The notes under the pieces: model-generated
Seen by the model: the letters and a program-made list of their open reading frames with translations, nothing else
What the model was told of the DNA's origin: nothing
Database searches by the model: none
In this document: one piece after another, positions 39,022 to 55,341 of the stretch
How the letters are laid out: each line of letters opens with the position of its first letter
Position numbering within the stretch: the stretch's first letter is position 1
Origin: a virus
Virus record (IMG/VR): IMGVR_UViG_3300045988_149942
Length of the DNA: 63,212 nt
Direction: 5' to 3' (one strand)
Translations under genes and position numbers: made by a program

Positions 39022-41199
39022 ATGGCCGCAAGAGAAGAAAACATTCTGAACGTTCCCCTCTCCGAGACTCTCGAAGGGATGCACGTCCTTTGCGACACCG
39101 GAGATACGGGTGAGCCGTATCGTGTCGCCGCCAGCCTCTTTATTGCCGAGGCAACGCAGGCCGCGAAAGACGCGGTTTCCAACCTTGATCCCAAGGATGT
39201 AACCCTCAAGGGGTTCGCCGCACTTACGGCCGGAAAACCCGCGATCACCGCCAACTCTACGTTGTTGGCGGCCATTCAGTCGTTGTACGCGATGGTGGGC
39301 TCCGGCAAGGTCAAGGTCGTCAGCGATGGTGCCGACCAGACCGGAATGGTCTGCTGGAACGGGACATCGGCCAGCGGATTCGTCATCAACGTGAACGAAG
39401 CGGCCATCTACACCCGTTCGAAGTGGACGCAGTCCAACCCGGATTCCGTGACGGATGCTAACTGGATCGCCGCGGTTAAAACTGGCGGAACAAAGACTCC
39501 CTTCGCCGCCGCCGCGCAGAACCCAAACATGGGCGATCTTCCCACAAACAGCCGTCTCAAGTTCGTCGATAACAAGACCACAATCCTCGGTATGCTCAAG
39601 ATGCTGACTGCCGCCGCAAACGTGGGCCGCCTGCGTATCGTGTCCGGCAATCCCGCCACGGGAGCATCCGGGAAACCGGAGTTGGCCTTCATCGTTAATA
39701 TCGTTCAGGGAGCGAATGCCGAAACGCAGGGTACGAACGGTCTTCAGATTTTCCACCTGACCAACGACTACATCCGCGTCATTCCTTCGTCCAGTGTCGC
39801 TATGGCGTGGCCTACGCTCCAGACGTTGACCGACGAAGACGTCATCAAGAAGTTGAACTCCACTGCCTCTGGCGACTGGGGAGGGTTGGGCGTGAAGATG
39901 AACTGGAATCAATCCTCCATAGCCACGGTTGAAATCACCGATTTCGCAGTACCCGGTATAAATGTAACAAAGGACGGAGAAAGTTTCTTTATTTACGCCT
40001 CCAATCCGTCTCACCATCCTTATAATAACGATGATTCAACATCGTTTGTAGGGATAGCCGTCGCCAGCCCTATCTTTATATCGGGCGACCAACGGCTACT
40101 GTACTACATGGTTCTGGACACCCAAAAGGCGAGATTTTACACCGGATATGCAAACATGGAAGACGATTCGGTCACATGGTCTGACGGCACACAGACTCGC
40201 TTGGGCGGCGCAATACAAATTACCGCTTTCACCAAAGGCGCATTAAGTAGTCTGGTGTACGACTACAAACCCGGTGATTTCATACCGTTCTATACGAGGA
40301 ATGTAACTGCTTCGGCATCAAACCAGTTCCCTGAATCAGGCGTCTTCAATGGCTTTATATCCATGGGAAGCAACGAGGGCGATTATTTCCAGATATTCGC
40401 CTTTAAGACTGGTGCTGGCGGAAAAGCTTATTCAGGATCGTGTATTAGAAGCACTACCACTTGGACAAAACTTGGTGGCGGAGGCGGAGAACAAACAGTA
40501 ATATGGATCAATGCCAATCAAAACGTCTTCGATGTGGGCCTATATCCTTTCACTAAACTGGGTGAAATGTTCCCTATCTTCATTGACACATCAGCCACCA
40601 ATAATCCTTCTAAGGAAGGCTACCCTTGCGCGGGCACTGTTCAATGTGTAGGTTACCAAGGCCCAGAATCTTGGGAGGCGGTATTCGTAGTAGGTAGTGC
40701 CAACGAAGACCAAACTCCTCGCGGAGACTACTACAAGGCTCACCTGAGTTACGACATGGGGGGTTCTGCGTGGATCGAGCTAACGACGGGTAGCTCAAAT
40801 GAAATCTTCCCCGGCTGGAAACTGATTGTAAGTTCGTGGAGTAGCGCCGTAGGACCATCCGGAACGACTGGGATTATTCATTTCAATCAGGAGATACCCA
40901 CCACCTCGAAAATACTTATCGAAGCAACTATCCAGTCCTCTCCCGCTACAACGGCTATAATTAAGTTCCCGGTGCCTCTTACTATCGCGGGCATTAATGG
41001 AACCGGACAAGGAGTATTGTTTGAGATTTGCTCGAAGTATCTGGGCATTAACAGCACTCCGGGCAGTATCAAACTTATCTGTTCGTCGGTTATCACCGGA
41101 GCCAACGGGGTGCGAGGCATGAACGTTATTGTACAATCGAACAACTTATCAGACGCTTCGGATATTATCCAAATAAAAGGGATATATTTCAAAGCATAA
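39022..41199 (+). CDS. tail fibre / receptor-binding protein with exchangeable C-terminal tip
   Basis: ORF 38710..41199 trimmed to ATG 39022; 725 aa, Gly/Ser/Thr/Ala-rich; carries in-frame site S4. Confidence 0.7.
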   Translation: MAAREENILNVPLSETLEGMHVLCDTGDTGEPYRVAASLFIAEATQAAKDAVSNLDPKDVTLKGFAALTAGKPAITANSTLLAAIQSLYAMVGSGKVKVVSDGADQTGMVCWNGTSASGFVINVNEAAIYTRSKWTQSNPDSVTDANWIAAVKTGGTKTPFAAAAQNPNMGDLPTNSRLKFVDNKTTILGMLKMLTAAANVGRLRIVSGNPATGASGKPELAFIVNIVQGANAETQGTNGLQIFHLTNDYIRVIPSSSVAMAWPTLQTLTDEDVIKKLNSTASGDWGGLGVKMNWNQSSIATVEITDFAVPGINVTKDGESFFIYASNPSHHPYNNDDSTSFVGIAVASPIFISGDQRLLYYMVLDTQKARFYTGYANMEDDSVTWSDGTQTRLGGAIQITAFTKGALSSLVYDYKPGDFIPFYTRNVTASASNQFPESGVFNGFISMGSNEGDYFQIFAFKTGAGGKAYSGSCIRSTTTWTKLGGGGGEQTVIWINANQNVFDVGLYPFTKLGEMFPIFIDTSATNNPSKEGYPCAGTVQCVGYQGPESWEAVFVVGSANEDQTPRGDYYKAHLSYDMGGSAWIELTTGSSNEIFPGWKLIVSSWSSAVGPSGTTGIIHFNQEIPTTSKILIEATIQSSPATTAIIKFPVPLTIAGINGTGQGVLFEICSKYLGINSTPGSIKLICSSVITGANGVRGMNVIVQSNNLSDASDIIQIKGIYFKA
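40783..40801 (+). repeat. recombination-site candidate S4 (core ACGGGTAGCTC 40786-40796, read T-G-S-S)
   Basis: 11/11 core identity with S1, S2 and S3. Confidence 0.6.
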
Positions 41200-41206: not shown

Positions 41207-41230
41207 AAAGCCCCTCTAATGAGGGGCTTT
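41207..41230. terminator. Bidirectional hairpin terminator AAAGCCCCTC-taat-GAGGGGCTTT
   Basis: Perfect 10-bp stem with A/T flanks between convergent ORFs; same stem as at 47349. Confidence 0.75.
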
Positions 41231-41233: not shown

Positions 41234-41671
41234 TTACAGCGCCTTGGATAGCCTATATATGCCTACGACATGGAATGCTTCTATGATAGTATCCATCTCT
41301 CCGGTAGCCTCCATCGAAAGTATCGTATCCGACGCCGACAGCATTAAGTTGAAGCCGGATATGATGGATACACCTCCGGTGGCCGACGAGTAATCGAATG
41401 CCTCCACTGTAACATCGTATGTGCCAGATGTGGCGGTCCAAATGATACTGCGACCTCCTTGGGGGCCTACCATAGTGTGATCGTCGGATATAAAATCGTA
41501 TACAATCATCAGCAAGTCGCCGTCGTGCACTTCACCACCCAAGTTGAATGTTTCCGGCGCGGCGTTAGCCAAGGCTATGTCGCCTACGAATAGTTGTTCT
41601 GTTCCACTTGAGCTACCCGTGATTTGATATATGATGCTTAGTGATGACCTCGCGATTCGCGACTCCATCAT
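41234..41671 (-). CDS. tail-fibre tip cassette 1 (silent/alternative copy with 16-codon leader)
   Basis: MMESRIARSSLSIIYQ-ITGSS-...VGIYRLSKAL; site S1 is in frame. Confidence 0.55.
   Translation of the reverse strand: MMESRIARSSLSIIYQITGSSSGTEQLFVGDIALANAAPETFNLGGEVHDGDLLMIVYDFISDDHTMVGPQGGRSIIWTATSGTYDVTVEAFDYSSATGGVSIISGFNLMLSASDTILSMEATGEMDTIIEAFHVVGIYRLSKAL
41605..41624 (-). repeat. recombination-site candidate S1 (inverted relative to S4)
   Basis: Sense strand CAAATCACGGGTAGCTCAAGTG. Confidence 0.6.
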
Positions 41672-41760
41672 AACGCAACGTAACTGCCTAACCCTCTCCC
41701 GAAACGGAGATTCATTTCGGCTATAATATCGTTATCGGAATACCGATAACGAATGATAGT

Positions 41761-41786
41761 AAAAAGGGACCCGTTGGAGTCCCTTT
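41761..41786 (-). terminator. Terminator after the tail-tip gene
   Basis: AAGGGAC...GTCCCTT stem + T5 on the minus strand. Confidence 0.6.
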
Positions 41787-41788
41787 CG

Positions 41789-44700
41789 CTATCGCATCAT
41801 GTGGTTGTAGAGCCAGTATTGTCCATCCCATAGAAACAGTGCGGCGTCTCCCAAACCTTCTCCAACGCTTGTTTCTAATGAAGCAGAACCTCTTAATATC
41901 CGTGCCCCATTTCCATTCACCTTAACATTGGCCGAATTATTGCGGCGCACGATAACAAAATTGCCCTCGGCTCCTCCCGGCACGACCGCTGGTAATGTTA
42001 TCGTTATTTCCGATGTATTATAACACGACACATACATCACGCTATGATCTATGGTCGTAGAGGCGCTAATCCTTAGTGTTTTGTAGGCCAAACCTGAAAC
42101 GTACCCATTCTCGATGCGTATTGCTTCGTTTTGTTGACCTCCTCTTACATCTATAAGAAGCCCGATGTTATATCCAAACATATTGTCATCCCTCCAACTC
42201 TCAAATCGAGCCATGCAGGTTGCACCCGTCGTTGCGGAGAACACGTTGGTTCCCATGAAAACGTTTACATCTACGATAGGGTTGGATGATTTTTCCGAGA
42301 ACTTGATAAACGAATCATACAACGACATCCCGTTGGTGGGATTAGGGTCATTTGGATCGGATATACTTCCTATACGCCCACTCCCTATTTGGAATCCGCC
42401 TATCGAGCCGCTTTCGGCTACTATTTCTCCTTTAATTTCAGCCTCACTGGATATTAACTTGCCTCCCTCCAGAATCTTCGTCGGCGCATCGTACCGCTCC
42501 GAGAACGGCTTTCCAGCCCAGAACCGAATCTGACCCTCGCTGGCCGCCACACCAGAGGGCACGGCGGCATCATCCGCCGTCATGCCGACCAGTACGCTCT
42601 CAACCTTGGTCTCCGATCCCACACCGATGTACCCCTGAGCGATGAAGCTACCCTGAAAGTATGCCTCCTCTGCCGCGGCCCGGATTACGTCTCCAACGAA
42701 GGAGAGCTCGTTCTTGCCGTCGGCGAGAGACTCGTACTTGAGGTACTTGGTGCGCTCTCGGTTGCCGACGTAGAGGTTGCCGAAGACCTCGGCCCACGTC
42801 TTGCCTTCGATCCGGCCGAGGTTGATGCTGTCCTTGGCTGTAAGGTTGTAGCCAGTGATGTCATCGAGCCATGTCATCAGAGCACCGCCTTCTCGGGAAA
42901 CATCTATGACTATGGCCGACTGCCGCGATGTATCGGTCGGGTTTCCAAGTTGAACTACGTTATCTCCGGCATGCGGCTCGTCGCTATTGGTGGCCGCATC
43001 GGTCTTGGAAAGGTCGATATAGTTGATACCTATGCCGACAACCTTGCGCCAGTAGAAGATGTTCTCCAGCGTCGATTCGTCGATGTCGCCGATCATCTGG
43101 GAATAGGCTTGATCGCCGACCACAAACTCATTCGTCTGCTTTCCGTCGGTCTGCTCCAGATAGCATCGCCATGCCTCTCCGATGTCCTCAACTTCCGAAA
43201 TAGTTCCGGAGGCACTGGTCAACACCTGCTTGCCGCCTATCGCTGTTATCTGATTGATAACGATTTCGTTCACGTTCATCTTGCGACGAACGAAGAGGTG
43301 ATCTACCTCTAATACAGAGCTACCGTCCGGGTTCTTGTACATCCCCCACCCAGAGCCCCCGAAGCCTCCTTGCCGGAAGTTGTCGCTCATGGTCGTGTCG
43401 GCGAATGTAACCTCGGCCGTAAAGTGCGTCGGAGAGTACGAGCGGGCCGCAATTCCATCCTTGCGCAGAAACAGCGTTTCGAACGTTTTGGCGGCCTCAG
43501 CAACGATTTGGGAGGATGACATGATGTTGGAGCTAAGGCGCCGAATTTCGCCTTGTATGGCCGACGTAGAGGTCTTACTCGCTACCATCTCCTCCGACAC
43601 CGTGATAGTCCATTCGGGGAGGAGTTTGCCCTCCTTATAGGCAATGGTCAGGTTATTGATATACAGCACCAGATCGGTCTCGCCGATAAGTTGGTTGTTG
43701 TGTAATCGTATCTTCGTTCCCGGCCGGAGCTTCTCGCGCTCTTCAAAACTTTCGCAGAATATCGCGCTCGGCTTGGCGGAGAAGGTTGGATTCTCGTCAT
43801 CGACGCGATCCAGTTCCACTTCGAGGTAGTCCTGCAACTTATCCTCGGCCCACAACACATACTGATGGGGCATTTCGATGTTGATAAGGAAGAAGTGGTC
43901 TCCCGGCTTAGCGTTCTGCTTTGTGTTGGGGAGCATGAGGCCGGAGGCGCGAAGCTCGGCATCCGACTTGATAAGCGATAGCCGATACTTGGATTTCACT
44001 GTGATCGTGTTCCCTTCCTCGTCCACCGTTTCGATATGCTTGGAGTCATCCTCCCATATACACCAGTAGTCGCCAGTTTCAGGGTCTTTGGCCTCTGGGT
44101 TGCCGAGCGTCGGGTCTTTGGCGATAACAAATTCGTAGTCCTCTCCGGCCAGCAACCCGTCGGAGAACATGACCGTAGCCTCGCGCTGACCGATCTTCGG
44201 CCACCACACGTCTACGATAGAGCCAGTCTCGCCCCAAATATCCTTAATCCAGATGTCGAATACTTGACGGTATGGGCCAATTCCCTCAGCCGGAGCTACA
44301 CTGAACCTCCCGGTGGTAACCGCCATGTAGTAGTGCTGGTTGCTTCCGGGGTTGGTTGTGCACTTGAAAGATACAGATGTCCGGACTCGATACTTACCCA
44401 TCGGCAACTGAATCTCAAACTTACTCTTGCCTTCGTTCTGAACTTCACCTCTTGCATCAGTGTATTCCATATCAGTTAGCGCATTCAACGCTTTCGAGAA
44501 TACCACCTGATTGAACTCAGAGAGGACATACACATTCAGCTCAGCGTACTCCAAGTGATTGCTGTCGAACCATTTAGTATATCTTTCTACACCTCTTGGC
44601 ACGGTGCTCGTCTCCTTTCCGTATATGCTGAATGTAAGGGTAGGAAGCGTTGCCTTAACTTCCATCTCTTCACTGGTTACGGACTGGGTGAATAGCTTGT

Positions 44701-45967
44701 CATACACTACTGGGCCCCGCCGCGTGTCCATTCCCGGAAAATCAACTTTTATTTCCGTAGATTTATAGGCAAATTTGCCTTTTTCTTCGGCTTCCGCGTA
44801 GTTATCATTCGTCACCTCCTCGACCGCAATCACCTCGTCGGCCCGGCCAAGTGTGCCAAGCCATACATTCTGGATCGAAGGGTAAATCTCCTCGTTGTCT
44901 TCGAGCACCCCGACCCGAACGCCCCACTTCTCCTGCATCGGAGAGTCGGCATAGTCGGACGGGTACATCTGTCGCCCGGCCTTCATATCGGAGTAGCCGA
45001 GCATGTAGTACGGGTTGTTGCCTTCGGCCGGGTCCTTTCCGGCCGTAGCGTCATTCCAGCCTCGAACATAGTCGCGGTACGACTTCGGCATGAGGTTGGA
45101 GTAGTAGGATAGCTCGGTAATCGAGTTTGCATCGGGGTCTCCGACGAAGGCCCCGGCCGCACCCTTGAAGTAGCGGTAGGGGAGGTTCCGGGTCGAACCG
45201 CGGCCAATCAGCCGGGTGTAGATGTCCGTCTGGTCATTCACGCGCTGGATCGAAACCAGTCCGGTTCCGTCTGCGTTCGCCTCGTCCATCGGCACGTCGC
45301 CGTAATCGAAGATGTGCTCGATCTCGGGCGACGGGAAACCGACTTTAATGCTGATCTGGCCGTTGTCTTCTTCGATACTCCAGCGAACACCGTATAGCTC
45401 GTATAGCTGGGTCAGCACATCCCAGATCGTCGTCTTGTCAACACTCACGGTAGCCCGGAACGGATTTATCTCCATATCCGGGTTCAGAACCACCTTCCAA
45501 CGCGCTCCGTAGTAGTAAGCGAGGTTATCCCCCAACCGACCGACAAACTCCGTCAAATCGGCTAAAAATGCGAATTTCATGCCGATGGTCTGGAGCGTAC
45601 CGTCGGTGAGCTTGATTATATTCGAGAACGGGTAGAATTTGAGGTCCTCCCGCTCCGAAACGAAGGTGAGCGTGTATTTGTAGCGGAGCGACTTGAGGTC
45701 CTTGATCCCCGGCGGCGCATAGCTCTTGAGATGGTATGTCTCGCCGTTGTACACCACGGTCCAGTTCAAGTTGAATCCCGGCTCCTCTTCGGGACCGAAG
45801 TAGACATCCATCGTGATGACCGACTCCCCCATGTCAACCTCGTTGACCGTGAAGTTCGTGATCTCGATTTCGTTCGCCAAAAGATTAAAGGTGATGGCCT
45901 TGTTGTTGTAGAGCATCACCTTATTGTCGTAGACGAGTAGAGCGGGAACCAGCGACTTGATTATCAT
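41789..45967 (-). CDS. tail tip / baseplate hub protein (Tal-like, 1392 aa)
   Basis: Very long ORF directly downstream of a Dit-sized gene; typical siphovirus distal tail arrangement. Confidence 0.75.
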   Translation of the reverse strand: MIIKSLVPALLVYDNKVMLYNNKAITFNLLANEIEITNFTVNEVDMGESVITMDVYFGPEEEPGFNLNWTVVYNGETYHLKSYAPPGIKDLKSLRYKYTLTFVSEREDLKFYPFSNIIKLTDGTLQTIGMKFAFLADLTEFVGRLGDNLAYYYGARWKVVLNPDMEINPFRATVSVDKTTIWDVLTQLYELYGVRWSIEEDNGQISIKVGFPSPEIEHIFDYGDVPMDEANADGTGLVSIQRVNDQTDIYTRLIGRGSTRNLPYRYFKGAAGAFVGDPDANSITELSYYSNLMPKSYRDYVRGWNDATAGKDPAEGNNPYYMLGYSDMKAGRQMYPSDYADSPMQEKWGVRVGVLEDNEEIYPSIQNVWLGTLGRADEVIAVEEVTNDNYAEAEEKGKFAYKSTEIKVDFPGMDTRRGPVVYDKLFTQSVTSEEMEVKATLPTLTFSIYGKETSTVPRGVERYTKWFDSNHLEYAELNVYVLSEFNQVVFSKALNALTDMEYTDARGEVQNEGKSKFEIQLPMGKYRVRTSVSFKCTTNPGSNQHYYMAVTTGRFSVAPAEGIGPYRQVFDIWIKDIWGETGSIVDVWWPKIGQREATVMFSDGLLAGEDYEFVIAKDPTLGNPEAKDPETGDYWCIWEDDSKHIETVDEEGNTITVKSKYRLSLIKSDAELRASGLMLPNTKQNAKPGDHFFLINIEMPHQYVLWAEDKLQDYLEVELDRVDDENPTFSAKPSAIFCESFEEREKLRPGTKIRLHNNQLIGETDLVLYINNLTIAYKEGKLLPEWTITVSEEMVASKTSTSAIQGEIRRLSSNIMSSSQIVAEAAKTFETLFLRKDGIAARSYSPTHFTAEVTFADTTMSDNFRQGGFGGSGWGMYKNPDGSSVLEVDHLFVRRKMNVNEIVINQITAIGGKQVLTSASGTISEVEDIGEAWRCYLEQTDGKQTNEFVVGDQAYSQMIGDIDESTLENIFYWRKVVGIGINYIDLSKTDAATNSDEPHAGDNVVQLGNPTDTSRQSAIVIDVSREGGALMTWLDDITGYNLTAKDSINLGRIEGKTWAEVFGNLYVGNRERTKYLKYESLADGKNELSFVGDVIRAAAEEAYFQGSFIAQGYIGVGSETKVESVLVGMTADDAAVPSGVAASEGQIRFWAGKPFSERYDAPTKILEGGKLISSEAEIKGEIVAESGSIGGFQIGSGRIGSISDPNDPNPTNGMSLYDSFIKFSEKSSNPIVDVNVFMGTNVFSATTGATCMARFESWRDDNMFGYNIGLLIDVRGGQQNEAIRIENGYVSGLAYKTLRISASTTIDHSVMYVSCYNTSEITITLPAVVPGGAEGNFVIVRRNNSANVKVNGNGARILRGSASLETSVGEGLGDAALFLWDGQYWLYNHMMR

Positions 45968-46380
45968 GTTATATGGTAGTTAAAATCACACTTGTTAGGT
46001 TCGGCTACATAGAGCGTCAATTCGAAGATGAACGCGCCCTGCATGACCTGCACGATAGTCTCAGAGCCCGGCATCTTGGTCGGGTAGCCTACGATCTTCA
46101 CGCCTTTGTAAAGGTTATATATTGTGACCGGGAGAGCTTTCTTTACGTCGCCGTTCGTAGTGGGCTCGAAGAAGGAGTCCCATAGGGATCGGATCGCCGC
46201 GTTCATCGTTTCGAGCTCACCGAAGTAGAGTAGCTTCACGGTGTACTCGAAAGCCTTGTCTACGGTGTAGGGATATATCTTAACACCGTCGCGCTCCGGA
46301 TAGTCCTCCTCTTCGTAGGAACGCTTCTCCGGCGCGAGAATATCAGGGGATTCCATCAGGTGAAATCCCATCGTCTGCAT
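45964..46380 (-). CDS. distal tail protein (Dit-like, putative)
   Basis: ORF 45964..46494 trimmed to ATG 46380 (18 nt after the upstream stop); ATGA overlap with the Tal start. Confidence 0.5.
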   Translation of the reverse strand: MQTMGFHLMESPDILAPEKRSYEEEDYPERDGVKIYPYTVDKAFEYTVKLLYFGELETMNAAIRSLWDSFFEPTTNGDVKKALPVTIYNLYKGVKIVGYPTKMPGSETIVQVMQGAFIFELTLYVAEPNKCDFNYHIT

Positions 46381-46400
46381 ATCTCGAACCTCTCCGTCGG

Positions 46401-46925
46401 CTACTTGGTAGCGGAGGCGGCAATCCCTTGTGGCTTCCATTTCTTGCGCTTGATTCGTATGTTGCCTTTGAATACCGGGACGCAGTGTCCCCACTGGTAG
46501 ACGGTTACGGGCTTTACGGACTTGTTGTTGATCCTCACCGGGGAGTTGTCGAAGATGTCGAGGATCAGTATTGCGTTCGGTGCTACCTCGAATTTAAGGT
46601 TGCTCCCGTATGCAACATAGGCATGCACCACGGCCCACTCCTTAACCCGAACCGTCCCCTCGCAAAGCCAAAAAACATCGACTCCTTGAACGGCTTCGGT
46701 ATCTACCGTCTGCTGGACGAAGATACCAGCCACATTCAAGTCTTTCTTATCCCAGCACGTGCGAATCAACTCAACCGAAGGAAACCCGGAAAAAGTGCAC
46801 TCCTGAATCATAGTTTTGAAGTGATCGAAGAGCGCAGGGGTATCTTCCGTGAGCATCTGCTTGAAATGATCCTCACATATCCCGGCCGCATGAGCCTCCC
46901 GCGTCAGTGCTTTGATGATGTCCAT
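46401..46925 (-). CDS. hypothetical protein
   Basis: ORF 46401..46964 (TTG start) trimmed to ATG 46925. Confidence 0.55.
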   Translation of the reverse strand: MDIIKALTREAHAAGICEDHFKQMLTEDTPALFDHFKTMIQECTFSGFPSVELIRTCWDKKDLNVAGIFVQQTVDTEAVQGVDVFWLCEGTVRVKEWAVVHAYVAYGSNLKFEVAPNAILILDIFDNSPVRINNKSVKPVTVYQWGHCVPVFKGNIRIKRKKWKPQGIAASATK

Positions 46926-46963
46926 AACCGCTCCAAATATACGCAAAAAAAAAGCGTAAACCA

Positions 46964-46983
46964 AATCACGGGTAGCTCGGGTG
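46964..46983 (+). repeat. recombination-site candidate S3
   Basis: AATCACGGGTAGCTCGGGTG, 20/20 identical to inverted S2. Confidence 0.65.
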
Positions 46984-47342
46984 TAAAAAAGCTACCGGGG
47001 TTAGACGTGGTGCTCAACGAAAGCACTGCTGTCATCCCCTACGCATCTACCGAATTAGTGCCGTTATCGGCAGGTACCACATTATTGCTTTGTTTCGAAT
47101 TGGCCGATTCCGATGCTCGGTTTAGTCCGTGCGGAAATGTGGTTGTATATTATGATTTGCCTCCGGCGAACAATTTATGGGGAACGATTGCAGGATTCTT
47201 CGATAACGCAACCGGTTCTAATGGGTTCATCAACGCCCGGCGCCGTGGAGCAGGAATCTTTGATTTTCAATGTTTGAGCGCATTAGTAGACGGGTATCCA
47301 TCCCTCGAAGTGTACCTCAAGCATATCCTTATACTTGGATAG
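46965..47342 (+). other. startless tail-fibre tip cassette 3 (126 codons from ITGSS to stop)
   Basis: In-frame ITGSSGVKKLPG...EVYLKHILILG; the upstream part of ORF 46428..47342 is antisense to a real gene. Confidence 0.5.
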
Positions 47343-47348
47343 CAAAGC

Positions 47349-47374
47349 AAAGCCCCTCGTTTTGAGGGGCTTTT
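47349..47374. terminator. Bidirectional hairpin terminator AAAGCCCCTC-gtttt-GAGGGGCTTTT
   Basis: Same stem sequence as 41207-41230. Confidence 0.75.
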
Positions 47375-47377
47375 CAA

Positions 47378-47764
47378 TTACTTTCCTGAAATATTGTATA
47401 TTCCCGTTATAAGGTATTGAGGGCCATGAGTACTACCGCCCCAGGATGCAGCCGAAAATAAAAGAGCCTCCGACCCAGCTTCGGTTGTACTTTGATCAAG
47501 GAAAAGTCCATAATATTCACTCGGAGTGACGAAATTTTCTACTAATTCCAAGAACACATCATGCCCATATGCGTTTGGATTAATAATAGCTTGACCTGGA
47601 ACGTCTATACCTAAATAGGAGGTATTTTGTTTACGCCATGTGATCAACACTCTATCTGTTGCTTTGAGTGCTCTTGTAAGATTAATTTGTACTGGGTCCC
47701 CATTGCCCGCATCGGAGTCAACCATGACATAAGTTGCTTCCGTAGGAGTCCACAGTGCCTCCAT
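47378..47764 (-). CDS. tail-fibre tip cassette 2 (frame stays open upstream through ITGSS to 47788)
   Basis: L-ITGSS-GGG-MEALWTP...LITGIYNISGK. Confidence 0.55.
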   Translation of the reverse strand: MEALWTPTEATYVMVDSDAGNGDPVQINLTRALKATDRVLITWRKQNTSYLGIDVPGQAIINPNAYGHDVFLELVENFVTPSEYYGLFLDQSTTEAGSEALLFSAASWGGSTHGPQYLITGIYNISGK

Positions 47765-47769
47765 TCCTC

Positions 47770-47789
47770 CACCCGAGCTACCCGTGATT
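47770..47789 (-). repeat. recombination-site candidate S2
   Basis: Given strand CACCCGAGCTACCCGTGATT; overlaps the stop codon of 47788..48423. Confidence 0.65.
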
Positions 47790-48423
47790 AACTTATCTGT
47801 TCCAAAAAGACATCTTTGAGGCGCTCAAATCTGGTGGTACGACTTGGTCCGATACCGTTCAAAGTGGCGACCCTACGAGACGAGATCATGTCTACGTCTA
47901 CATCCTTGTAGTCGTTATACCAAACCCGATCCATCCTGATTAATACGCATAACTCCCTTGCTTCCGGCTCGGCTCTTCGATCCAGCCAATCGCACATTGC
48001 GGCCAACGATATAGGACTCCCATTCAGGTAGGACCTCTCATACGCTTCGACCAAGAATTTCGCCCTTTCGTATGACGGGATAGACGGAGGTCCGAACACT
48101 CCAATTTCGGCGTACAAATCTTTGTAGAAGAGGAATCTGTGGTACTCAAACATCGTGACAATATTAACCCCGGCCTTTCCCGTAGCGGCCAGCCAGATGG
48201 GATCAATCAATATCAGCGGAATGTTTTCGAGACGCTTAACCAGTTCCGGATCGCACATACACTCAATCGTGAGTTTACACCCCGGCGACGACTGATTTTC
48301 GAACCACTTTGCGAAGTCGCCGAAGGTATGGTGGTCATGCTCCTTCCACTTCGCTTGGGCGTAGTCGATCTCTCTGTTGAGGTCGCGGTTTTTGAACGCC
48401 CGCAGATAGTCAGTGCTTTTCAT
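47788..48423 (-). CDS. hypothetical protein
   Basis: 211-aa ORF. Confidence 0.65.
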   Translation of the reverse strand: MKSTDYLRAFKNRDLNREIDYAQAKWKEHDHHTFGDFAKWFENQSSPGCKLTIECMCDPELVKRLENIPLILIDPIWLAATGKAGVNIVTMFEYHRFLFYKDLYAEIGVFGPPSIPSYERAKFLVEAYERSYLNGSPISLAAMCDWLDRRAEPEARELCVLIRMDRVWYNDYKDVDVDMISSRRVATLNGIGPSRTTRFERLKDVFLEQIS

Positions 48424-48841
48424 TTTTGATTTGGTTTTTGAAATGTTCGTCGTAAAGTTCCCTGATCTTAGGGGTCAACTCTTTGATAGTCTCGATATAT
48501 ATGTATCGAATCGTACATAAAGCCCGGACTATTCCCCAAGATTTAGGGTTCCCTGCATCGTCGAATTGAACGTTTCGGATGTGGGGGAAATGTACCTGAG
48601 CCAAGAACCCGAACTTGCCGTAATCCATGAGCAGTTGCTCCAGATCACCAAACTGAGTGCAGTGTTTGGTTGCCTCAACGGGAATGTCAGGAAAATTGCT
48701 TTCAAAACTCCCGTCGTCCAGCATGGAGTCGATCATCTCCTCCACGTCCTCTCTGTCCGGATGCCCTGCAATCCAGATCAGTTTCCAAATCCTCGTCTCG
48801 TTAAGCGCGGCGAGGTAGTTGTATACATTGACATTTTTCAT
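48410..48841 (-). CDS. hypothetical protein
   Basis: 143-aa ORF. Confidence 0.65.
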   Translation of the reverse strand: MKNVNVYNYLAALNETRIWKLIWIAGHPDREDVEEMIDSMLDDGSFESNFPDIPVEATKHCTQFGDLEQLLMDYGKFGFLAQVHFPHIRNVQFDDAGNPKSWGIVRALCTIRYIYIETIKELTPKIRELYDEHFKNQIKNEKH

Positions 48842-48890
48842 ACTCCTCGATTTTAAGTGAAGGAGGGACCCGAAGGCCCCTCCACTTGTT

Positions 48891-49163
48891 CTACTTCACG
48901 GCGTCCTTCACCGCAGGCGAGAACTTGAACGACACGCGGTTCTGGGCCGGGATCGTGACCGACTTCCCTCGGCTCATGTCGTAGCCCTGACGCGCGGGGC
49001 ATGCCTTCACGCTGAACGTTCCGAAGCCCTTGAGGGAGACTTTCTCCCCGTTCTTGAGGGTCTCGACGATCTTGTCCATGAACGTCTCACACACCTTGTT
49101 CACGACGGTCTTGGTGATGCCCGTCTCTTCGGCGATCTTCGCCATCAATTCGCTTTTCTGCAT
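48891..49163 (-). CDS. hup: HU/IHF-family DNA-binding protein
   Basis: GFGTFSVKACPARQGYDMSRGKSVTIPAQNRVSFKFSPAVKDAV matches the HU arm signature; trimmed to ATG 49163. Confidence 0.8.
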   Translation of the reverse strand: MQKSELMAKIAEETGITKTVVNKVCETFMDKIVETLKNGEKVSLKGFGTFSVKACPARQGYDMSRGKSVTIPAQNRVSFKFSPAVKDAVK

Positions 49164-49270
49164 TTTCGTTTTGATTTTTAAGTTGATAGAGTTTTTCTTC
49201 AAGGGCCTCTATTTTACCCATGCAGTAGTATATCAGGGCTCCCATTATGATAAGCAAAGAGAGCCAAAGT

Positions 49271-49714
49271 TCATCGAATTGCATGTTTGATGATAACTTG
49301 AACGGGCGTAGAGCCCACATAATCTTCGTATTTGAGCGTACTCGGGTCGATCTGTCCGTCGGGCCGCAGAACTCCGTACATGCGGACCTTCTGGATCATC
49401 ATGCCTCCGAGTAATTCGTTTAAACGCACCCTTATTCGATCTTCCAGTTCCCGGTACGCCGGATCAGTCTCGATCATCGCGCTCCGGGTCTCACGGGCGT
49501 TGATGACTGCGCACCTCGTTCGGTTGATGTACGCCCCTATCTGCTCGTCCTTGATGCCCGGAACGATCTCTTGGAGTATCTGGATGATAGCGTATCGCGC
49601 GAAGAACCGCTCGGTCGTTCGGCGCTTATCGCGTACATCCGACATCCGGAGGTCGCACTCGATCTGGACGGCCCGGTCAAGGCAGATCACCTTCTCATTT
49701 TCCTCCAGCCTCAT
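49271..49714 (-). CDS. DnaA C-terminal-like HTH protein (putative)
   Basis: RFFARYAIIQILQEIVPGIKDEQIGAYINRTRCAVINA resembles DnaA domain IV. Confidence 0.45.
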   Translation of the reverse strand: MRLEENEKVICLDRAVQIECDLRMSDVRDKRRTTERFFARYAIIQILQEIVPGIKDEQIGAYINRTRCAVINARETRSAMIETDPAYRELEDRIRVRLNELLGGMMIQKVRMYGVLRPDGQIDPSTLKYEDYVGSTPVQVIIKHAIR

Positions 49715-50090
49715 AGTGGTCGAAGTGGATGTAGGGGAGTTGATTCGGTAGGAATTTCCATGCCGAGCGCGGAAGTGTGAACTTCGCCAGACCAGCGGCC
49801 ATAGCCAAGATCAGGAACTTCTCCATGACCATCGGCTCTCCGGTCCACATCGTACCGTCGCGGCGCGTTGCGAGGAGCGAGAACGGCCCGGATAGATCGA
49901 AGAACTCGTCGGGGAGATCGTCGATCATCTTCCCGATCTCGGGAAGATGTTTCTGGAACTTCTTGCGGTAGATGAACTGGACCCCACTGATGGAATCCAC
50001 GATGATGTCCGGACCCTTCGGCTTCTCGCCGATAGGGTAGGCGCATTCGGCGAACAAGTCGTTCACCCGGTCGTATTCGAGATTATACAT
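49695..50090 (-). CDS. hypothetical protein
   Basis: ORF 49695..50219 trimmed to ATG 50090. Confidence 0.5.
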   Translation of the reverse strand: MYNLEYDRVNDLFAECAYPIGEKPKGPDIIVDSISGVQFIYRKKFQKHLPEIGKMIDDLPDEFFDLSGPFSLLATRRDGTMWTGEPMVMEKFLILAMAAGLAKFTLPRSAWKFLPNQLPYIHFDHYEAGGK

Positions 50091-50301
50091 AGCGATTGAA
50101 TGATAAGTGATCGAGAGAAACTCCACCGACGACGTTTTCCACGCGAACAACCCAGTCGCCAGACCCAAGTTGCCACGGCATGCCGCGGAACTTGGTCTTG
50201 ACTGGTTCGCTATGATCAACGTCGGAGATGTAGTGGTAGTAGTAAACGTCCGCGCCGGGCACTACCTCCTCCGGCCGTATGCCGAATTTCTTACTGCACA
50301 T
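50083..50301 (-). CDS. hypothetical protein
   Basis: ORF 50083..50331 trimmed to ATG 50301. Confidence 0.45.
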   Translation of the reverse strand: MCSKKFGIRPEEVVPGADVYYYHYISDVDHSEPVKTKFRGMPWQLGSGDWVVRVENVVGGVSLDHLSFNRYV

Positions 50302-50773
50302 TGTCGCTGACTCTTTTGAACTCAGACGCAAGAATCTCTTCGAAGTCGGTCAGGTCGCCGATCCAGCCGAAGTCAACGCACACGACCATCTCCTTGGCCT
50401 TGTTATCGTGAGCAAAACCGGGGGTGAATATCTTCGTTTCGATACCCACAGCCGAGGATAGCTCGTGTTTGTACACCGTCGGAATCGTTTCGAGTTCGGT
50501 CTTGATGCGTTTATACTCAGGGCTCTTGGTGTTGAGTTGGTAGTGGTTCTCGCCTCGAACCTTTTTCCAGCCGATCTTCGCCTCCTCCGAGGTAAACATT
50601 ACCGGGAGCACGTTCGGGCTGTAAAACACCCCGCCGAAATGTTTGTAGGTGGCGATGCCGAGTTTGGTCAACACCTTCTTCTGAATTTCGAAGACGCGAT
50701 CTCGCTTCTCTTCGAACTCAAGTACCCGCTTCCACGTCGGAGAGCCGGGCTTCACTTTGTAGTACACGTTCAT
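50291..50773 (-). CDS. hypothetical protein
   Basis: 160-aa ORF. Confidence 0.6.
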   Translation of the reverse strand: MNVYYKVKPGSPTWKRVLEFEEKRDRVFEIQKKVLTKLGIATYKHFGGVFYSPNVLPVMFTSEEAKIGWKKVRGENHYQLNTKSPEYKRIKTELETIPTVYKHELSSAVGIETKIFTPGFAHDNKAKEMVVCVDFGWIGDLTDFEEILASEFKRVSDNVQ

Positions 50774-50815
50774 GACCTTTGCTTTTTTAATGATTTCTTA
50801 CTTCGATTCGATTTT

Positions 50816-51124
50816 TCATAGCTCTCCTATCGTTTTAGCGATGTCTACAACATCACCGATATTATCTTTGGCCATTTTGAGCCCGTAATGAGCGATAACG
50901 CCCGACAAGAGGATGGCGGTTCCGATCCGGAAGTCGTACCCGTCGTTCGCCCACTCCTTGGTCTCGTTTAGTTCCTCTTCGGTCTTGATCTGGGCGACCG
51001 GGACCGGGTTCGGGTAGCCTTCCAACGCCACGAATACCGGACTGATGTTCGCCTCAACCACATACCAGTGCTTGTTCTTGGTCCAGAACACCGTCTGGCC
51101 GATCTTAAATTTACTCTGCGTCAT
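50816..51124 (-). CDS. hypothetical protein
   Basis: 102-aa ORF. Confidence 0.55.
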   Translation of the reverse strand: MTQSKFKIGQTVFWTKNKHWYVVEANISPVFVALEGYPNPVPVAQIKTEEELNETKEWANDGYDFRIGTAILLSGVIAHYGLKMAKDNIGDVVDIAKTIGEL

Positions 51125-51833
51125 TGTATTCTAATACTCGTTTGACTGCAATTTTATGCCACTTTCCGCCGCGCGGCCGTTCGATTTCCACCTCGTTGAA
51201 GTGGTCGGCGATCTCGGCCAGCGACCAGCCCTTGCGCTGTAATGCGAGGGCGTACTTCTTTGCTTCGACCATGCGCGGGTCCACAACCCGGTTCTCGGCG
51301 ATCCGCTCCATCCGGCGAGCCAGTTGATCCGGAGACATCGGCCCGCGCTGGGGCCGCGGATTCCCGAGTCGCGTCACCCGGCGCCCGGCCTTGGAGATAA
51401 AGAAGCCCTGCTCCTTGAGTTGCTTCTTCCGGACGCCGAGCGCCGACTTTGTTCGGCCCGAGATAAGTTCGCGCTCTGTCTGAGCCAAGCCGATAGCGAG
51501 GCAAAAGGTGATCGTTGTCGCCTCGGGGTAGTCTATCGCCAGCAGATCGACCCCCGTATTGCGCAAATACAGCGCGTACTCCGCATCACGGGAGAGTCGA
51601 TCCAGTTTGGCGACGATCAAAGTTGCACCTTCACGCGCGGCTAATTCCATCGCGCGACGAAGGCCCGGTCGGTTCCGATCCTTTCCACTGCGAATGTCAC
51701 GGAACTCGCCGATATTCTGCCCGTGTGTCCGGGCAATATATTCGCGGCACTGATCGAGTTGGGCTTCCAGACCGAGGCCTGAACGCCCCTGCTCTTCGGT
51801 GCTCACGCGGGTGTAGATGCAATACTTTTTCAT
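51111..51833 (-). CDS. small serine recombinase (resolvase/invertase family)
   Basis: N-terminal YTRVSTEEQ catalytic Ser motif, DRLSRD, C-terminal HTH-like region; 240 aa. Confidence 0.85.
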   Translation of the reverse strand: MKKYCIYTRVSTEEQGRSGLGLEAQLDQCREYIARTHGQNIGEFRDIRSGKDRNRPGLRRAMELAAREGATLIVAKLDRLSRDAEYALYLRNTGVDLLAIDYPEATTITFCLAIGLAQTERELISGRTKSALGVRKKQLKEQGFFISKAGRRVTRLGNPRPQRGPMSPDQLARRMERIAENRVVDPRMVEAKKYALALQRKGWSLAEIADHFNEVEIERPRGGKWHKIAVKRVLEYNDAE

Positions 51834-52168
51834 GTGCTATAAATGTAGTTTACAACATAGGGAAGGCACTCCTCGAAAGACTGCATTTCGGCGCATATAT
51901 CGTCCTTGTGAGGACAGCCGAGGCATTTCCCTTGCCGAGCGTAATCCTCCATCACAATGCGCCTAAAATCGTCTTCTGTAAGACCGTCGTCATAATCGGC
52001 ATCCCGGGCAACCATCAGGCATGTGAGATGTGCCTTCCATGTGTATATCTCACCGTCGTCCTTGATGGTTTGGATGTTATACTTCTCCCCTTTTTTGATC
52101 TTGCCGGAGCAGAAATTACAGACGTGATCTTTACGCGCGATGATGTCGTTGTTAGCAAGAACTTCCAT
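51830..52168 (-). CDS. hypothetical Cys-rich protein
   Basis: 112-aa ORF with CNFC...C...C. Confidence 0.55.
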   Translation of the reverse strand: MEVLANNDIIARKDHVCNFCSGKIKKGEKYNIQTIKDDGEIYTWKAHLTCLMVARDADYDDGLTEDDFRRIVMEDYARQGKCLGCPHKDDICAEMQSFEECLPYVVNYIYST

Positions 52169-52508
52169 CCTTCTCTCTGGTTACAGCCTGCATCGCCGCG
52201 ATCTTCATGCCGTTGATCTTCTGGTGTTGCATGCCGAGTTCCATGCCGATGATGACGAGGAGTTGGTCGCGGCGGTTCGCCATCACTCCGATCTGCTTCT
52301 CCACGACGCTCAGGATGATCTCGGCCGCCTCGGTCAGTATCGGACCCCGGCTGTTCTCCTCCTTGAATGCTTCCGTGGCTTTCTCTACTTCGTTCCACAT
52401 CTCGTTCCACTTCTCGTCATCGAAGTAGTCGCCGAGCATAGCCTCAACGAAGTTCATATTTTTGTGATTCCAGCGAGCCGGAGCAAGCCAGTCAAAATTC
52501 TTGTTCAT
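52152..52508 (-). CDS. hypothetical protein
   Basis: 118-aa ORF. Confidence 0.55.
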   Translation of the reverse strand: MNKNFDWLAPARWNHKNMNFVEAMLGDYFDDEKWNEMWNEVEKATEAFKEENSRGPILTEAAEIILSVVEKQIGVMANRRDQLLVIIGMELGMQHQKINGMKIAAMQAVTREKDGSSC

Positions 52509-52509
52509 G

Positions 52510-52932
52510 TTATTCGATAATTTTGATTAAGGCCACCGAGGTGGACTGACTGGTGATACCCGTGATCCGGGCCTGACACTTGGAGCCATAGGGGACGTAG
52601 ACGAGGTCGTCCGGCAGGCAGGTGATCCGCGCGATGGTTCCGTTCGGTAGTTCCGCCATCGGCCACTTCTTCGTGTCGTCGAAGGGGTTCTGTATCACCG
52701 TTACGAGGATGTCGGCGCCGACGCGGTACGGTCCGTGGCCGGAATCCTCTTCGAGCGCAGGTGTGGTCGCTTTCTTCTCTTTGCGCGGGCGCAGGATATT
52801 CTGGCCCATTGCGATGCTGACGAAATAGCCAGCCTTTTTCGCGTTGTCGAAATCGCGGATGAACCACCAGATACCCAGTACCCGGACATAGGCGGCCCAT
52901 TTACCATTGTGAAGTCTTCTCTCGAATTTCAT
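52510..52932 (-). CDS. hypothetical protein
   Basis: 140-aa ORF. Confidence 0.55.
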   Translation of the reverse strand: MKFERRLHNGKWAAYVRVLGIWWFIRDFDNAKKAGYFVSIAMGQNILRPRKEKKATTPALEEDSGHGPYRVGADILVTVIQNPFDDTKKWPMAELPNGTIARITCLPDDLVYVPYGSKCQARITGITSQSTSVALIKIIE

Positions 52933-53263
52933 CGTCTAAGATATTTTTAATGTATTTGGGAAACTTTTTCTTGTAGGGAGAATCCCATGCCCCTTCTGTT
53001 ATCGTTACTTTGTAGCCTTTATCTCCCCGGTGCACCGCAAATGACTTGTCACCTCTGCATACATACCACTTCTTGTTAAGGTCGTAGCCGAGTTCCACGC
53101 ACACAACACTGATTTCGTCGCGCCTGAACTTTAGGTCTTGAATACCGTACATATCTGAATCGCATCTCAGTACTATATTTACAGGACCAACCGAAAGCAA
53201 TTCGCCTGAATATGGTATCGAGCGCTTGTTCACCATTATCCGCTTTCCTAAAAATCGTTTCAT
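52901..53263 (-). CDS. hypothetical protein
   Basis: 120-aa ORF. Confidence 0.55.
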   Translation of the reverse strand: MKRFLGKRIMVNKRSIPYSGELLSVGPVNIVLRCDSDMYGIQDLKFRRDEISVVCVELGYDLNKKWYVCRGDKSFAVHRGDKGYKVTITEGAWDSPYKKKFPKYIKNILDDEIREKTSQW

Positions 53264-54351
53264 TCCAGTAATTTATTAAGCATTAGCGGCTCAGTTGCGC
53301 GGAGCCGTACCGCGGTTATTGGTTCTTGCGAGGTCCCGAGAAGTAACACTCCCTTGCAACATGCTTGCCCGTAACGATAGAGTTTGTCGATCTGGACGTC
53401 GGTGAGAGTTTTGCCGAAGAACGGCCCGGAAAACAGAATCCAGTCATGGTGGACCTTTACCCAGCCGTTCTCTTCCAGCCAGCGATCCGGGTTCCGCATC
53501 TCTTTTACCGGAATCCTTTTCGAAGCCAGCAACCGTTCGGCGATGTTGAGATGGAGCATGTTTCCCGTGCTCCCGTTGAGGCCGTAGAACTCGCCGTCGG
53601 GCGACAGCCATCCGGCGTCGTACCCTTCGATGATCTCCACGGGTTTCAACTCCGTTTTGTGGTACTCTTCTATCTTCATCTCGTTCTCCATGTACTCCGA
53701 CAGCCGTTGCTTCTGGAAGTTCTGCTTCCGAATCGAAGCCTCTTCGGGATCGACAGTCATAAGCGAGTCGAGGATCGTGCGGACTCTGAGAATGGAATCG
53801 GTAAAAAGCACGCGGGACGTGTTCAGCGCATCGCACATCCATACGATAACCTCGTACACTTCGCCAACCCTTACAAAGAAGCCGTTCGCTCCTTTCACCA
53901 CTCCCTTGATCTGTTCGACCGTGCCGGAATGCGGATTGTCGAGAAGTCCCGCGTCCTCGCATCCGGAAATGTAGCTGACGAGTTCCGGGTATCGCACCGT
54001 GAACTCAAACTTGCCGCCAGCGTCCGCGATCTCCTGCCGAATACCCTCAAGGCTTTTCACCCACTCCTTCGCTTCCTCCTCCAGATGGATGCGCTGTTCT
54101 CTGATCCAGTCGTTGAATTTTCCTCCGGCTCCGGGCGTGCCCGTTACCTCCTGCGTCGCCTCGTCTTCGCCGAGGATGATCTTGCCGTCCAAAATATCGA
54201 CAGCCATACCCTCAGTGCACCCCGGCAATGATTGGGTGATAATTTCGACGGCCGCCCTCGGACTGAGTTTCTCCGTCAACCTCTCCCATGCTATGCGCTG
54301 GAGCATCTGGCCGAAGCCCTTACCTATCGTGAATGTTAATCCTCCTTCCAT
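53260..54351 (-). CDS. hypothetical protein (363 aa)
   Basis: Long ORF; its ATG lies only 4 nt downstream of a promoter box. Confidence 0.7.
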   Translation of the reverse strand: MEGGLTFTIGKGFGQMLQRIAWERLTEKLSPRAAVEIITQSLPGCTEGMAVDILDGKIILGEDEATQEVTGTPGAGGKFNDWIREQRIHLEEEAKEWVKSLEGIRQEIADAGGKFEFTVRYPELVSYISGCEDAGLLDNPHSGTVEQIKGVVKGANGFFVRVGEVYEVIVWMCDALNTSRVLFTDSILRVRTILDSLMTVDPEEASIRKQNFQKQRLSEYMENEMKIEEYHKTELKPVEIIEGYDAGWLSPDGEFYGLNGSTGNMLHLNIAERLLASKRIPVKEMRNPDRWLEENGWVKVHHDWILFSGPFFGKTLTDVQIDKLYRYGQACCKGVLLLGTSQEPITAVRLRATEPLMLNKLLE

Positions 54352-54355
54352 GATG

Positions 54356-54363
54356 CAAAGATA
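54356..54363 (-). promoter_or_regulatory. -7 promoter box TATCTTTG(CATC) on minus strand
   Basis: Reverse complement of CAAAGATA, abutting ATG 54351. Confidence 0.5.
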
Positions 54364-54404
54364 AATGTTTAATTTTTAATTTACAAGTTAAAACTCCCTT
54401 ATTT

Positions 54405-54671
54405 TTACGACACCCTTACGACGACGCCCTTGTGTCGGTCGTCGTCCCGGTTGAAGGACATGAAGTGCGTATCGTTGATCTCCAATTTGATGATCTCGTC
54501 GATCTCGTCGGCCAGCGCATATTTGAACTCATAATCGTTGTTGTCGCTCACTTCGTCGCCCAAAGCGAATTTGTGCTCTGAGAAGGACATCGAGTCTGCG
54601 TCCCACCACTTCGCCACAAATCGGCGGCTCAGCAGTTCGTTGTTGTTGATGTAGTTTAAAAACGTTGCCAT
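54405..54671 (-). CDS. hypothetical protein
   Basis: 88-aa ORF. Confidence 0.55.
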   Translation of the reverse strand: MATFLNYINNNELLSRRFVAKWWDADSMSFSEHKFALGDEVSDNNDYEFKYALADEIDEIIKLEINDTHFMSFNRDDDRHKGVVVRVS

Positions 54672-54674
54672 AAT

Positions 54675-55145: not shown

Positions 55146-55339
55146 TGTTTCAGTTTTTTGAATGGACCCGATTCGTTCTCTACATGGTCGATTCTGAACG
55201 GGTAGCCCTTCTTTCCGCTCCGTAAAAACCGAAGCCGGACGTTGTGGGTAGGGATCAGAAATACCGTGTCGTCTTCGATCTCGTTTACCCGCATCACTAC
55301 CTCGTCGGGTAGGTACATATATCTGTCTCCTATCTTCAT
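55142..55339 (-). CDS. hypothetical protein
   Basis: 65 aa; N-terminus MKIGDRYMY is paralogous to the next gene (MKIGDTYIH). Confidence 0.55.
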   Translation of the reverse strand: MKIGDRYMYLPDEVVMRVNEIEDDTVFLIPTHNVRLRFLRSGKKGYPFRIDHVENESGPFKKLKQ

Positions 55340-55341
55340 GG

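Follow-up and report, generated by a model that had tools for sequence, protein, structure and literature searches.

A shaftless two-cassette module in a gut Bacteroidales siphovirus is probably the second module of a four-site inversion system for the fibre tip

How could two cassettes that look like tail-fibre tips ever be used when neither lies beside a fibre shaft? The question arises at positions 46964-47789 of the IMG/VR virus record IMGVR_UViG_3300045988_149942, a stretch of 63,212 nucleotides (nt) that we call the window. We consider it very probable (about 0.85) that this segment is the second two-cassette module (module 2) of a four-site inversion system that switches the C-terminal receptor-binding tip of the phage's tail fibre. 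The part exchanged would be the C-terminal ~125-138 amino acids (aa) of the fibre.

An earlier reading of the window, made from its letters alone (the sequence-only reading), had described the segment as a second, unattached copy of a cassette module found at the fibre gene. Its inverted repeat is exact, matching at 20/20 positions, where 0 such matches are expected by chance (100 dinucleotide-preserving shuffles). The whole element spans 826 bp, and the arms enclose 786 nt, not the 796 bp first given. The two convergent frames inside them, both promoterless and both starting within the repeat, have the coordinates and ends that had been claimed. The parts are as follows.

46964-46983, + strand: site S3, AATCACGGGTAGCTCGGGTG
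46965-47342, + strand: cassette c3, silent in the window, 125 aa (ITGSSGVKKL...KHILILG, then stop), without any Met
47349-47373, no strand: bidirectional terminator hairpin of module 2, AAAGCCCCTC-gtttt-GAGGGGCTTT
47378-47788, - strand: cassette c2, silent in the window, 136 aa (ITGSSGGGMEAL...LITGIYNISGK, then stop), with an internal ATG at 47764
47770-47789, - strand: site S2, exact inverted copy of S3, overlapping the stop codon of the gene g211

The hairpin between the cassettes has folding energies of -17.8 and -22.8 kcal/mol on its two strands, and shares an identical 10-bp stem with the terminator of the first module (41207-41230), as had been noticed (z -3.6 to -5.5 for the two hairpins). 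The flanks were also described correctly. S3 lies on the 5' side of the divergent gene g174 (46401-46925), ending 38 nt upstream of its ATG (46925), and S2 overlaps the TAA (47790-47788) of g211 with an offset of one base from the cassette frame. In the window, neither flank offers a fibre shaft in frame with c2 or c3. A 304-codon open reading frame (ORF; 46428-47342, +) does run into c3, and we rejected it as a means of expressing the cassette because it runs antisense to g174 in the codon-opposite frame. Among relatives, the variable sites are distributed 8/11/32 over the codon positions of g174 and thus fall on its third positions, as expected if g174 is the real gene. An open frame antisense to g174, of 256-280 codons, precedes any cassette found at that flank in relatives.

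Module 2 is one part of a larger arrangement. Four sites, S1, S4, S3 and S2, share an 11-bp core, ACGGGTAGCTC, read as T-G-S-S in the fibre frame, and none of the four is expected by chance. The order is shaft - S1> c1 - terminator - c4 <S4 - X - S3> c3 - terminator - c2 <S2 - g211, where X is a block of tail-related genes. With orientations +,-,+,-, each site points into its own cassette, and neighbours are always mutually inverted. The remaining parts of the layout are as follows.

39022-40782, + strand: constant shaft of the fibre, within the 725-aa fibre gene 39022-41199, ending ...SAWIEL-T at S1
40782-40801, + strand: site S1, the expression site, AACGACGGGTAGCTCAAATG, inside the fibre gene and encoding ...IEL-T-T-G-S-S
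40783-41199, + strand: cassette c1, the tip expressed in the window (TTGSSNEIF...IKGIYFKA, then stop)
41207-41230, no strand: bidirectional terminator hairpin of module 1, AAAGCCCCTC-taat-GAGGGGCTTT, -18.2 to -18.3 kcal/mol on both strands
41234-41623, - strand: cassette c4, silent (ITGSSSGTEQ...GIYRLSKAL, then stop)
41605-41624, - strand: site S4, AATCACGGGTAGCTCAAGTG, with 2 mismatches to S3/S2
41625-46963, - strand: segment X, invertible 5.3-kb block between S4 and S3, with three tail-related genes
46401-46925, 45964-46440 and 41789-45967, - strand: the genes of X, respectively g174, g158 and that of a 1392-aa tail protein
41764-41787: terminator hairpin of X itself
47788-48423, - strand: g211, conserved outer flank and not a fibre shaft, syntenic in relatives, with a ratio of non-synonymous to synonymous substitution rates (dN/dS) of ~0.1

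S1 is the most diverged of the four copies, and together with the sequence to its left makes up the dyad GAGCTA-ACGACGGG-TAGCTC, which is clear at this site only. What the two modules have in common is their architecture, whereas their sequences are not copies of each other: c1-c4 are 13-25% identical in pairs, and all that they have in common is the TGSS encoded by the site and, at the C-terminus, a loose GIY motif. No family in Pfam, PHROG or NCBIfam matches the fibre, any of the four cassettes, g211 or g158. The shaft has homologues in 27 viral contigs and partial homology to hypothetical proteins of the crAss-like phages cr108_1 and cr111_1, and the 1392-aa protein of X has homologues annotated as "tail protein" in Bacteroides phages.

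The phage is a siphovirus of gut Bacteroidales, and the window, which encodes an SPP1-type portal, looks like its complete ~63-kb genome; the lineage is present as ~63-kb genomes in many human-gut metagenomes. Its nearest cultured relatives are the Parabacteroides phages PF672P1/P2, at 43% portal identity, and a megablast of 38-49 kb against deposited phages returned nothing. We gathered relatives by searching IMG/VR with the shaft, c2, c3 and the recombinase described below, by two protein searches, by exact-protein look-ups, and by one metagenome scan aimed at the predicted junction of the shaft with c2 or c3. They were mapped by tblastn and a site scan, and are cited here by L or P numbers.

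These relatives carry the junctions that an inversion system would leave behind. The cores are bordered by four types of outer flank: the shaft (GAGCTAACG), X-left (TATCAAATC), which adjoins the 3' end of the 1392-aa gene, X-right (AACCAAATC), which adjoins the start of g174, and g211 (AAG[C/T]TAATC). All 16 combinations of cassette and flank occur in the window or in relatives, joined exactly at the core.

c1: shaft in the window, X-left in L006, X-right in L009, g211 in L067
c4: shaft in L011, X-left in the window, X-right in L002, g211 in L074
c3: shaft in L068, X-left in L069, X-right in the window, g211 in L001
c2: shaft in L072, X-left in L005, X-right in L073, g211 in the window

The breakpoints always lie within the 11-bp core. 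The proposal that c2 and c3 reach the shaft by recombination is supported, since both are found in relatives as in-frame extensions of the shaft, joined via the same site. The 64,056-nt contig L068 encodes a window-type shaft (94-95% identity), then GAGCTAACG and ACGGGTAGCTC, then c3, in one ORF of 712 aa, which is the length predicted for the window shaft with c3. In L072, an intact 704-aa ORF has c2 at its end, joined via the site, and intact 693-aa ORFs of L073 and L074 end in c3. Shafts are also joined to c3 in L077, L078 and L008, to c2 in L025/L030 and P0002/L047, and to c4 in L013 besides L011. The most complete rearrangement is that of L074, a full reciprocal swap that reads g211 - S> c4 - t - c1 <S - X - S> c2 - t - c3 <S - shaft, t being the terminator.

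Isomers that differ by one inversion are found as well. L062 and L063, from different samples, are 99.98% identical over 14 kb and 5.2 kb of flanking sequence, and their 1,472-bp module 2, which holds the cassette families c6 and c7, lies in exactly opposite orientations at 100% identity, the alignments overlapping within 25-bp repeats. Segment X occurs in both orientations among relatives, and an identical c2 allele (P0196) lies beside either end of X in different samples. The exact isomers, the 16/16 combinations and the two orientations of X beside an identical c2 indicate that the underlying events are probably both frequent and precise. In the window, then, c2 and c3 are unexpressed spares, as the sequence-only reading had it, but the module is not merely a store, for it inverts in place and the 5.3-kb X inverts too. 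We ruled out an assembly artefact, since dozens of independent assemblies show the same four-site layout. Many short contigs end at or near sites, which is only suggestive.

The proposed mechanism follows from the layout. Because neighbouring sites are mutually inverted, the allowed inversions are S1xS4, S3xS2, S4xS3 and S1xS2. S1xS4 would flip module 1 and place c4 on the shaft. S1xS2 would invert 7 kb together with X, bringing c2 onto the shaft and c1/c4 into the store, and c3 would be reached in two steps, by S1xS2 and then a flip of the new first module. S3xS2 and S4xS3 would flip module 2 and X, respectively, and leave the fibre unchanged. Four sites would thus give 16 arrangements and 4 fibres, all in frame, and fusing the shaft in silico to c2 (723 aa), c3 (712 aa) or c4 (716 aa) produces no stops. 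Such switching would presumably take place within a phage population and change its host range.

Strand exchange may occur at or next to the AC of ACGGG, at the centre of the S1 dyad. A deletion in L001 ends directly after ...AAATCAC, and the recombinant junctions of L047 lie between ...ATG and TAGCTC; together these place the exchange in or beside the AC dinucleotide. Both recombinant junctions of L047 carry ATGGG, a result that does not follow from a simple 2-bp exchange between the assumed parents. On the X side of the crossover, a TAtaTTTG box lies 8 nt before the ATG of g174, with TTTG 20 nt upstream of the box. A -7/-33 promoter consensus is known for Bacteroides, and the X operon appears to carry its own promoter of this type, abutting the X-right half-site. 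If this reading is right, a flip of X need not silence the operon.

c2 and c3 are modelled by AlphaFold2 as compact all-beta domains (beta-sandwiches), with predicted local distance difference test scores of 81 and 83, respectively. Foldseek comparisons with the PDB give weak best matches to phage baseplate chains or chains like those of receptor-binding proteins (RBP), with E-values of 0.011 for c2 and 0.078 for c3. The lineage holds at least 7 cassette families, among them c6 and c7. Stops or frameshifts in c2 and c3 of relatives, which the sequence-only reading had named as the mark of relics, are seen in one relative alone (L010/L046, where c3 is cut to 75 aa), and 4 c2 and 8 c3 alleles have no stops. 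Its suggested search for fibres tipped with either cassette succeeded (c3 in L068, L073, L074, L077 and L078, c2 in L072).

Which enzyme would carry out the inversions? The window encodes one candidate.

51111-51833, - strand: serine recombinase, presumed invertase, 240 aa, matching PF00239 (Resolvase) at 5.9e-23

The N-terminal part of the protein is a serine-recombinase catalytic domain, and its nucleophilic Ser belongs to a YxRVS motif. It falls in the PHROG families "integrase" and "DNA invertase" and belongs to a very large group of 220-250-aa serine recombinases. Its best PDB match is the catalytic domain of the TP901-1 integrase (6.6e-9), followed by Gin (7.8e-7). The motif IYTRVST (residues 6-12) aligns to that of TP901-1, and the Gin alignment covers residues 44-137. 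Invertases such as Gin, Hin, Cin, Pin and Min are ~190 aa long, have a C-terminal DNA-binding domain of the HTH_7 type and act on 26-bp sites of imperfect 12-bp half-sites round a 2-bp crossover, with the help of a Fis-bound enhancer. Large serine recombinases have at least ~400 aa, with a full recombinase domain, a zinc ribbon and a coiled coil. In the 240-aa protein, there is no match to HTH_7, and PF07508 (Recombinase) matches weakly over residues 198-235, a fragment-like stretch of 38 residues. The NCBIfam match to Mpi reaches only 0.001, and NCBIfam scores, including those for XisF, CcrB and CcrA, are far below every cut-off. Judged by its sequence, the enzyme is neither a Gin/Hin-family invertase nor a large serine integrase.

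Conservation gives strong evidence that the recombinase gene is functional. The protein is 100% identical and syntenic, ~3 kb beyond g211, in 18 viral contigs and L047, despite 6-33 differences in the gene among the 16 relatives compared, all of them synonymous and 0 non-synonymous; the neighbouring genes are just 82-95% identical in DNA. This enzyme probably catalyses the inversions.

Several observations weigh against the reading of module 2 as part of a fibre-switching system. The recombinase gene does not adjoin the sites: it is 3.3 kb from the nearest (S2), with five genes between. PF672P1/P2 encode a 38.6% identical homologue of the recombinase, together with colinear homologues of g174 and of the big tail gene, and a convergent cassette module looked for in these phages was not found, so membership of this recombinase family does not imply fibre inversion. 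At the X flanks, the left half-sites fit the dyad poorly. All the evidence for switching comes from comparison between assemblies, not from within one population. The likeness of the cassette folds to known receptor-binding domains is weak (E 0.01-0.1), and the label "receptor-binding domain" therefore follows from their place in the fibre, not from their fold. With a dN/dS of ~0.3-3.6 for the cassettes, purifying selection on the silent c2/c3 is not demonstrated. Finally, the convergent pairs vary among relatives: c3/c4 in L035 (5073-5874), c3/c1 in L034 (10001-10525) and L077, c4/c5 in L011 (11633-12424) and c1/c5 in L001 (11705-12533). No site lies between paired cassettes, and the sole sequence shared there is the terminator stem, in a ~25-nt region. 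Four-site inversions cannot re-assort pairs, and another exchange process must therefore also act.

The distance of the recombinase gene from the sites could mean that a host (Bacteroidales) invertase catalyses the inversions and that the 240-aa enzyme serves dimer resolution or another inversion. The size of the 220-250-aa family and the homologues (30-39%) in phages that have no visible fibre shufflon (PF672P1/P2 and phages of Cellulophaga and Vibrio) are in line with this. We nevertheless judge it improbable. The enzyme is the only recombinase found in the ORFs scanned (no other recombinase, tyrosine recombinase or integrase domain turned up in the 40 larger window ORFs compared with Pfam), it is invariably syntenic with the site-bearing region, and it is under extreme purifying selection. 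A phage that grows in varied hosts could not count on a matching host enzyme, and all characterised phage fibre inversion systems generally known encode their own invertase (PMC6109161 for Min and Rin).

Rare historical recombination of co-infecting phages would account differently for the same rearrangements: these would be mosaicism, not the product of a programmed switch, and module 2 would be a leftover. The reliance on comparisons between assemblies, the re-assortment of pairs by some other recombination, the one-cassette or truncated modules of L001, L005, L007 and L010, and the same tips at other junctions in unrelated phages (L025, L049) would all suit this explanation. Yet it would leave unexplained why S3/S2 are kept at 20/20, why the breakpoints fall inside an 11-bp core, why 16/16 cassette-flank combinations exist, and why genomes 99.98% identical differ by an inversion alone while X lies both ways beside an identical c2 allele. 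It is thus very improbable. Least credible of all is that c2 is expressed in place, translation starting at the ATG at 47764 to give a free protein of 128 aa, with module 2 an orientation-dependent gene switch: that ATG is in frame, on the same strand and 24 nt after the g211 stop, and gene callers routinely call the 128-aa ORF (an exact look-up of the window's own copy gave no match), but c3 has no Met, c1 and c4 have no conserved start at the same flank, and the cassettes begin with the shaft-frame TGSS and recur as the C-termini of 693-712-aa fibres.

Returning to the four-site inversion system, its tips also occur outside its own layout. In some relatives, the shaft ends differently (...TWTELGGGSG), and c3, c4 or c2 is fused to this end with no core between (L047:10001-10699 and 18090-19964; L009:11447-11480), and a site-like sequence, GTGGATATG-A[C/T]GGG-AGTAAGC, lies 96 codons upstream. 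In L047, the whole region is inverted via this upstream site, which leaves a 232-aa ORF of shaft end and c2 beside g211 and places c1 on a shortened fibre of 624 aa. Reduced modules are found in L001 (18949-19242), L044 (10369-10665) and L010 (18441-18659). In one, there is a single cassette, and after it comes the 3' end of a truncated cassette, which runs straight into the half-site ...AAATCAC; in another, c3 is stopped at 75 aa. They look like deletion and decay products of the system.

A more distant case is L049, a 96,299-nt Logan contig (ERR6121409). It has a perfect 26-bp inverted repeat, CCACCCAGTGGACCCAGATAGGAGGT (9966-9991 / 10795-10820), that encodes TQWTQIGG and is unrelated in sequence to the core. 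The repeat encloses a silent c2 homologue (96% identical), the same terminator stem as in the window, AAGCCCCTC/GAGGGGCTT, and the 3' end of a 467-aa gene. The contig comes from a DAC16-like large Bacteroides phage: its 495-aa protein is 49% identical to that of DAC16-type phages, which rules out the crAss-like phage that we had also considered. The repeat looks like a second class of inversion site that serves the same tip family. Together with the alternative-shaft relatives, L049 points to tips that move between phage lineages, behind at least two site classes.

A bolder extension, which we think rather unlikely, is that the split layout is functional, with the choice of tip coupled to the orientation of X, and that unrelated Bacteroidales phages draw on a common pool of tips, which travel with the terminator that they share. 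If so, every switch to a store cassette would invert the 5.3-kb X, perhaps affecting the expression of the operon of the 1392-aa tail protein, and the pool would span this siphovirus, the DAC16-like large phage and phages with crAss-like shafts, each with its own recombinase.

Other features of these genomes lie outside the four-site layout. A copy of the core with one mismatch, ACGGGTAGCCC (flank CGATTCTGA), is found at 55198-55208 (+), ~3.1-3.4 kb beyond the recombinase gene. It is kept in place in most relatives examined and absent in L059, its flanks are unlike those of S1-S4, and none of the relatives is rearranged at this point. In a comparison of 47788-56000 with L047-L067, the synonymous divergence (dS) of g211 from relatives is 0.16-0.57, far above that of most cassette and g174 copies (mostly 0.01-0.14); lineages may have swapped the region of the tips and X more recently than the flank beside it. 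A 1922-aa ORF (30382-36150) is positioned like a tape-measure gene, and the homologous 1882-aa gene of relatives matches PF20155 (TMP_3). Upstream of the fibre, relatives have genes with BACON domains. Adjoining the portal gene, a 924-aa ORF (21461-24235, -) has LAGLIDADG_3 and Hom_end domains in residues 282-365 and no reported terminase domain; by its position beside the portal, it may be a large terminase interrupted by an intein or a homing endonuclease. PF672P1 (L090, OP172819.1) has a perfect 19-bp inverted repeat (14408-14426 / 21159-21177, 6.7 kb apart), which may belong to a different inversion in that phage.

Inversion of fibre tips is textbook knowledge for Mu (G segment, Gin), P1 (C segment, Cin), e14 (Pin) and p15B (Min). 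The variable segments of Min, Gin and Cin form one unbroken array next to the invertase gene; here, two modules are 5.3 kb apart, the recombinase is 3.3 kb off and no tail-fibre assembly gene lies beside the cassettes. The enzyme differs too, having no HTH_7 and a C-terminal motif like that of large serine recombinases, and so does the sequence of the sites. Min of the phage-plasmid p15B, of which Gin, Cin and Pin are simpler relatives, is a serine-recombinase system with short sites at the junction of the constant and variable fibre parts, alternative 3' ends joined in frame by inversion, and more than 2 sites that allow many isomers (summarised in PMC6109161, citing Sandmeier et al. 1992); in its sites, in-frame 3' ends and isomers it resembles the system described here. 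The Rin shufflon of Bifidobacterium prophages has an RBP with a constant N-terminus and C-terminal cassettes 6-30% identical, an 11-bp repeat before each, and its isomers are seen between genomes and in virions (PMC6109161). It thus shares with our phage a gut-phage RBP with dissimilar, repeat-preceded C-terminal cassettes, but it uses a tyrosine recombinase on a contiguous array bounded by the invertase gene, and not a serine enzyme on a split one (PMC6109161).

In BV01-like phages of Phocaeicola vulgatus, multi-cassette inversion also occurs at the distal end of the fibre, with a recombinase nearby (PMC13596623), and their shufflon has been proposed as a counter to host capsule phase variation (PMC13596623, preprint 2026). 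Those phages are temperate, and their three cassettes, with the motif TGGGAGAACT, lie within 1.7 kb in one run with the recombinase (PMC13596623), in contrast to two modules of two cassettes each, 5.3 kb apart, with the core ACGGGTAGCTC, no integrase found and no sequence relationship detected. [quoted passage not shown] These are cellular genes for surface antigens or specificity, mostly with tyrosine recombinases; here, the gene encodes a fibre and the recombinase is a serine enzyme, both from a phage. Among programmed inversions surveyed across a whole domain, tail-fibre genes are an enriched target (PMC9881135).

The constant 5' part that ends at a site, the promoterless cassettes, the in-frame fusions and the natural isomers are all features of the Min, Rin and BV01 systems, and the system described here is very probably a multiple-inversion tail-fibre system of that kind in a split layout. 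It differs from them in the split by an invertible block of tail genes, the distant recombinase, the other type of recombinase and the other site sequence. We found no description of the lineage or of the site in the literature.

Bacteroidales vary their capsules by phase variation, and their phages need matching variation in their RBPs. The biology seen here is in this sense expected; what stands out is the split layout, the full set of isomers and the sharing of tips across lineages. Silent fibre cassettes need not adjoin the fibre gene, and pipelines that read the fibre 3' end alone miss them. For such phages, a host range taken from a single assembly is unreliable, and assemblies break or are mis-joined at such loci. 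If the 240-aa recombinase is the invertase, it and the sites would make up a compact multi-site inversion toolkit from Bacteroidales. With four or more interchangeable tips and every intermediate state present in public assemblies, the lineage is a clean natural example of fibre-tip switching and a good model for its study.

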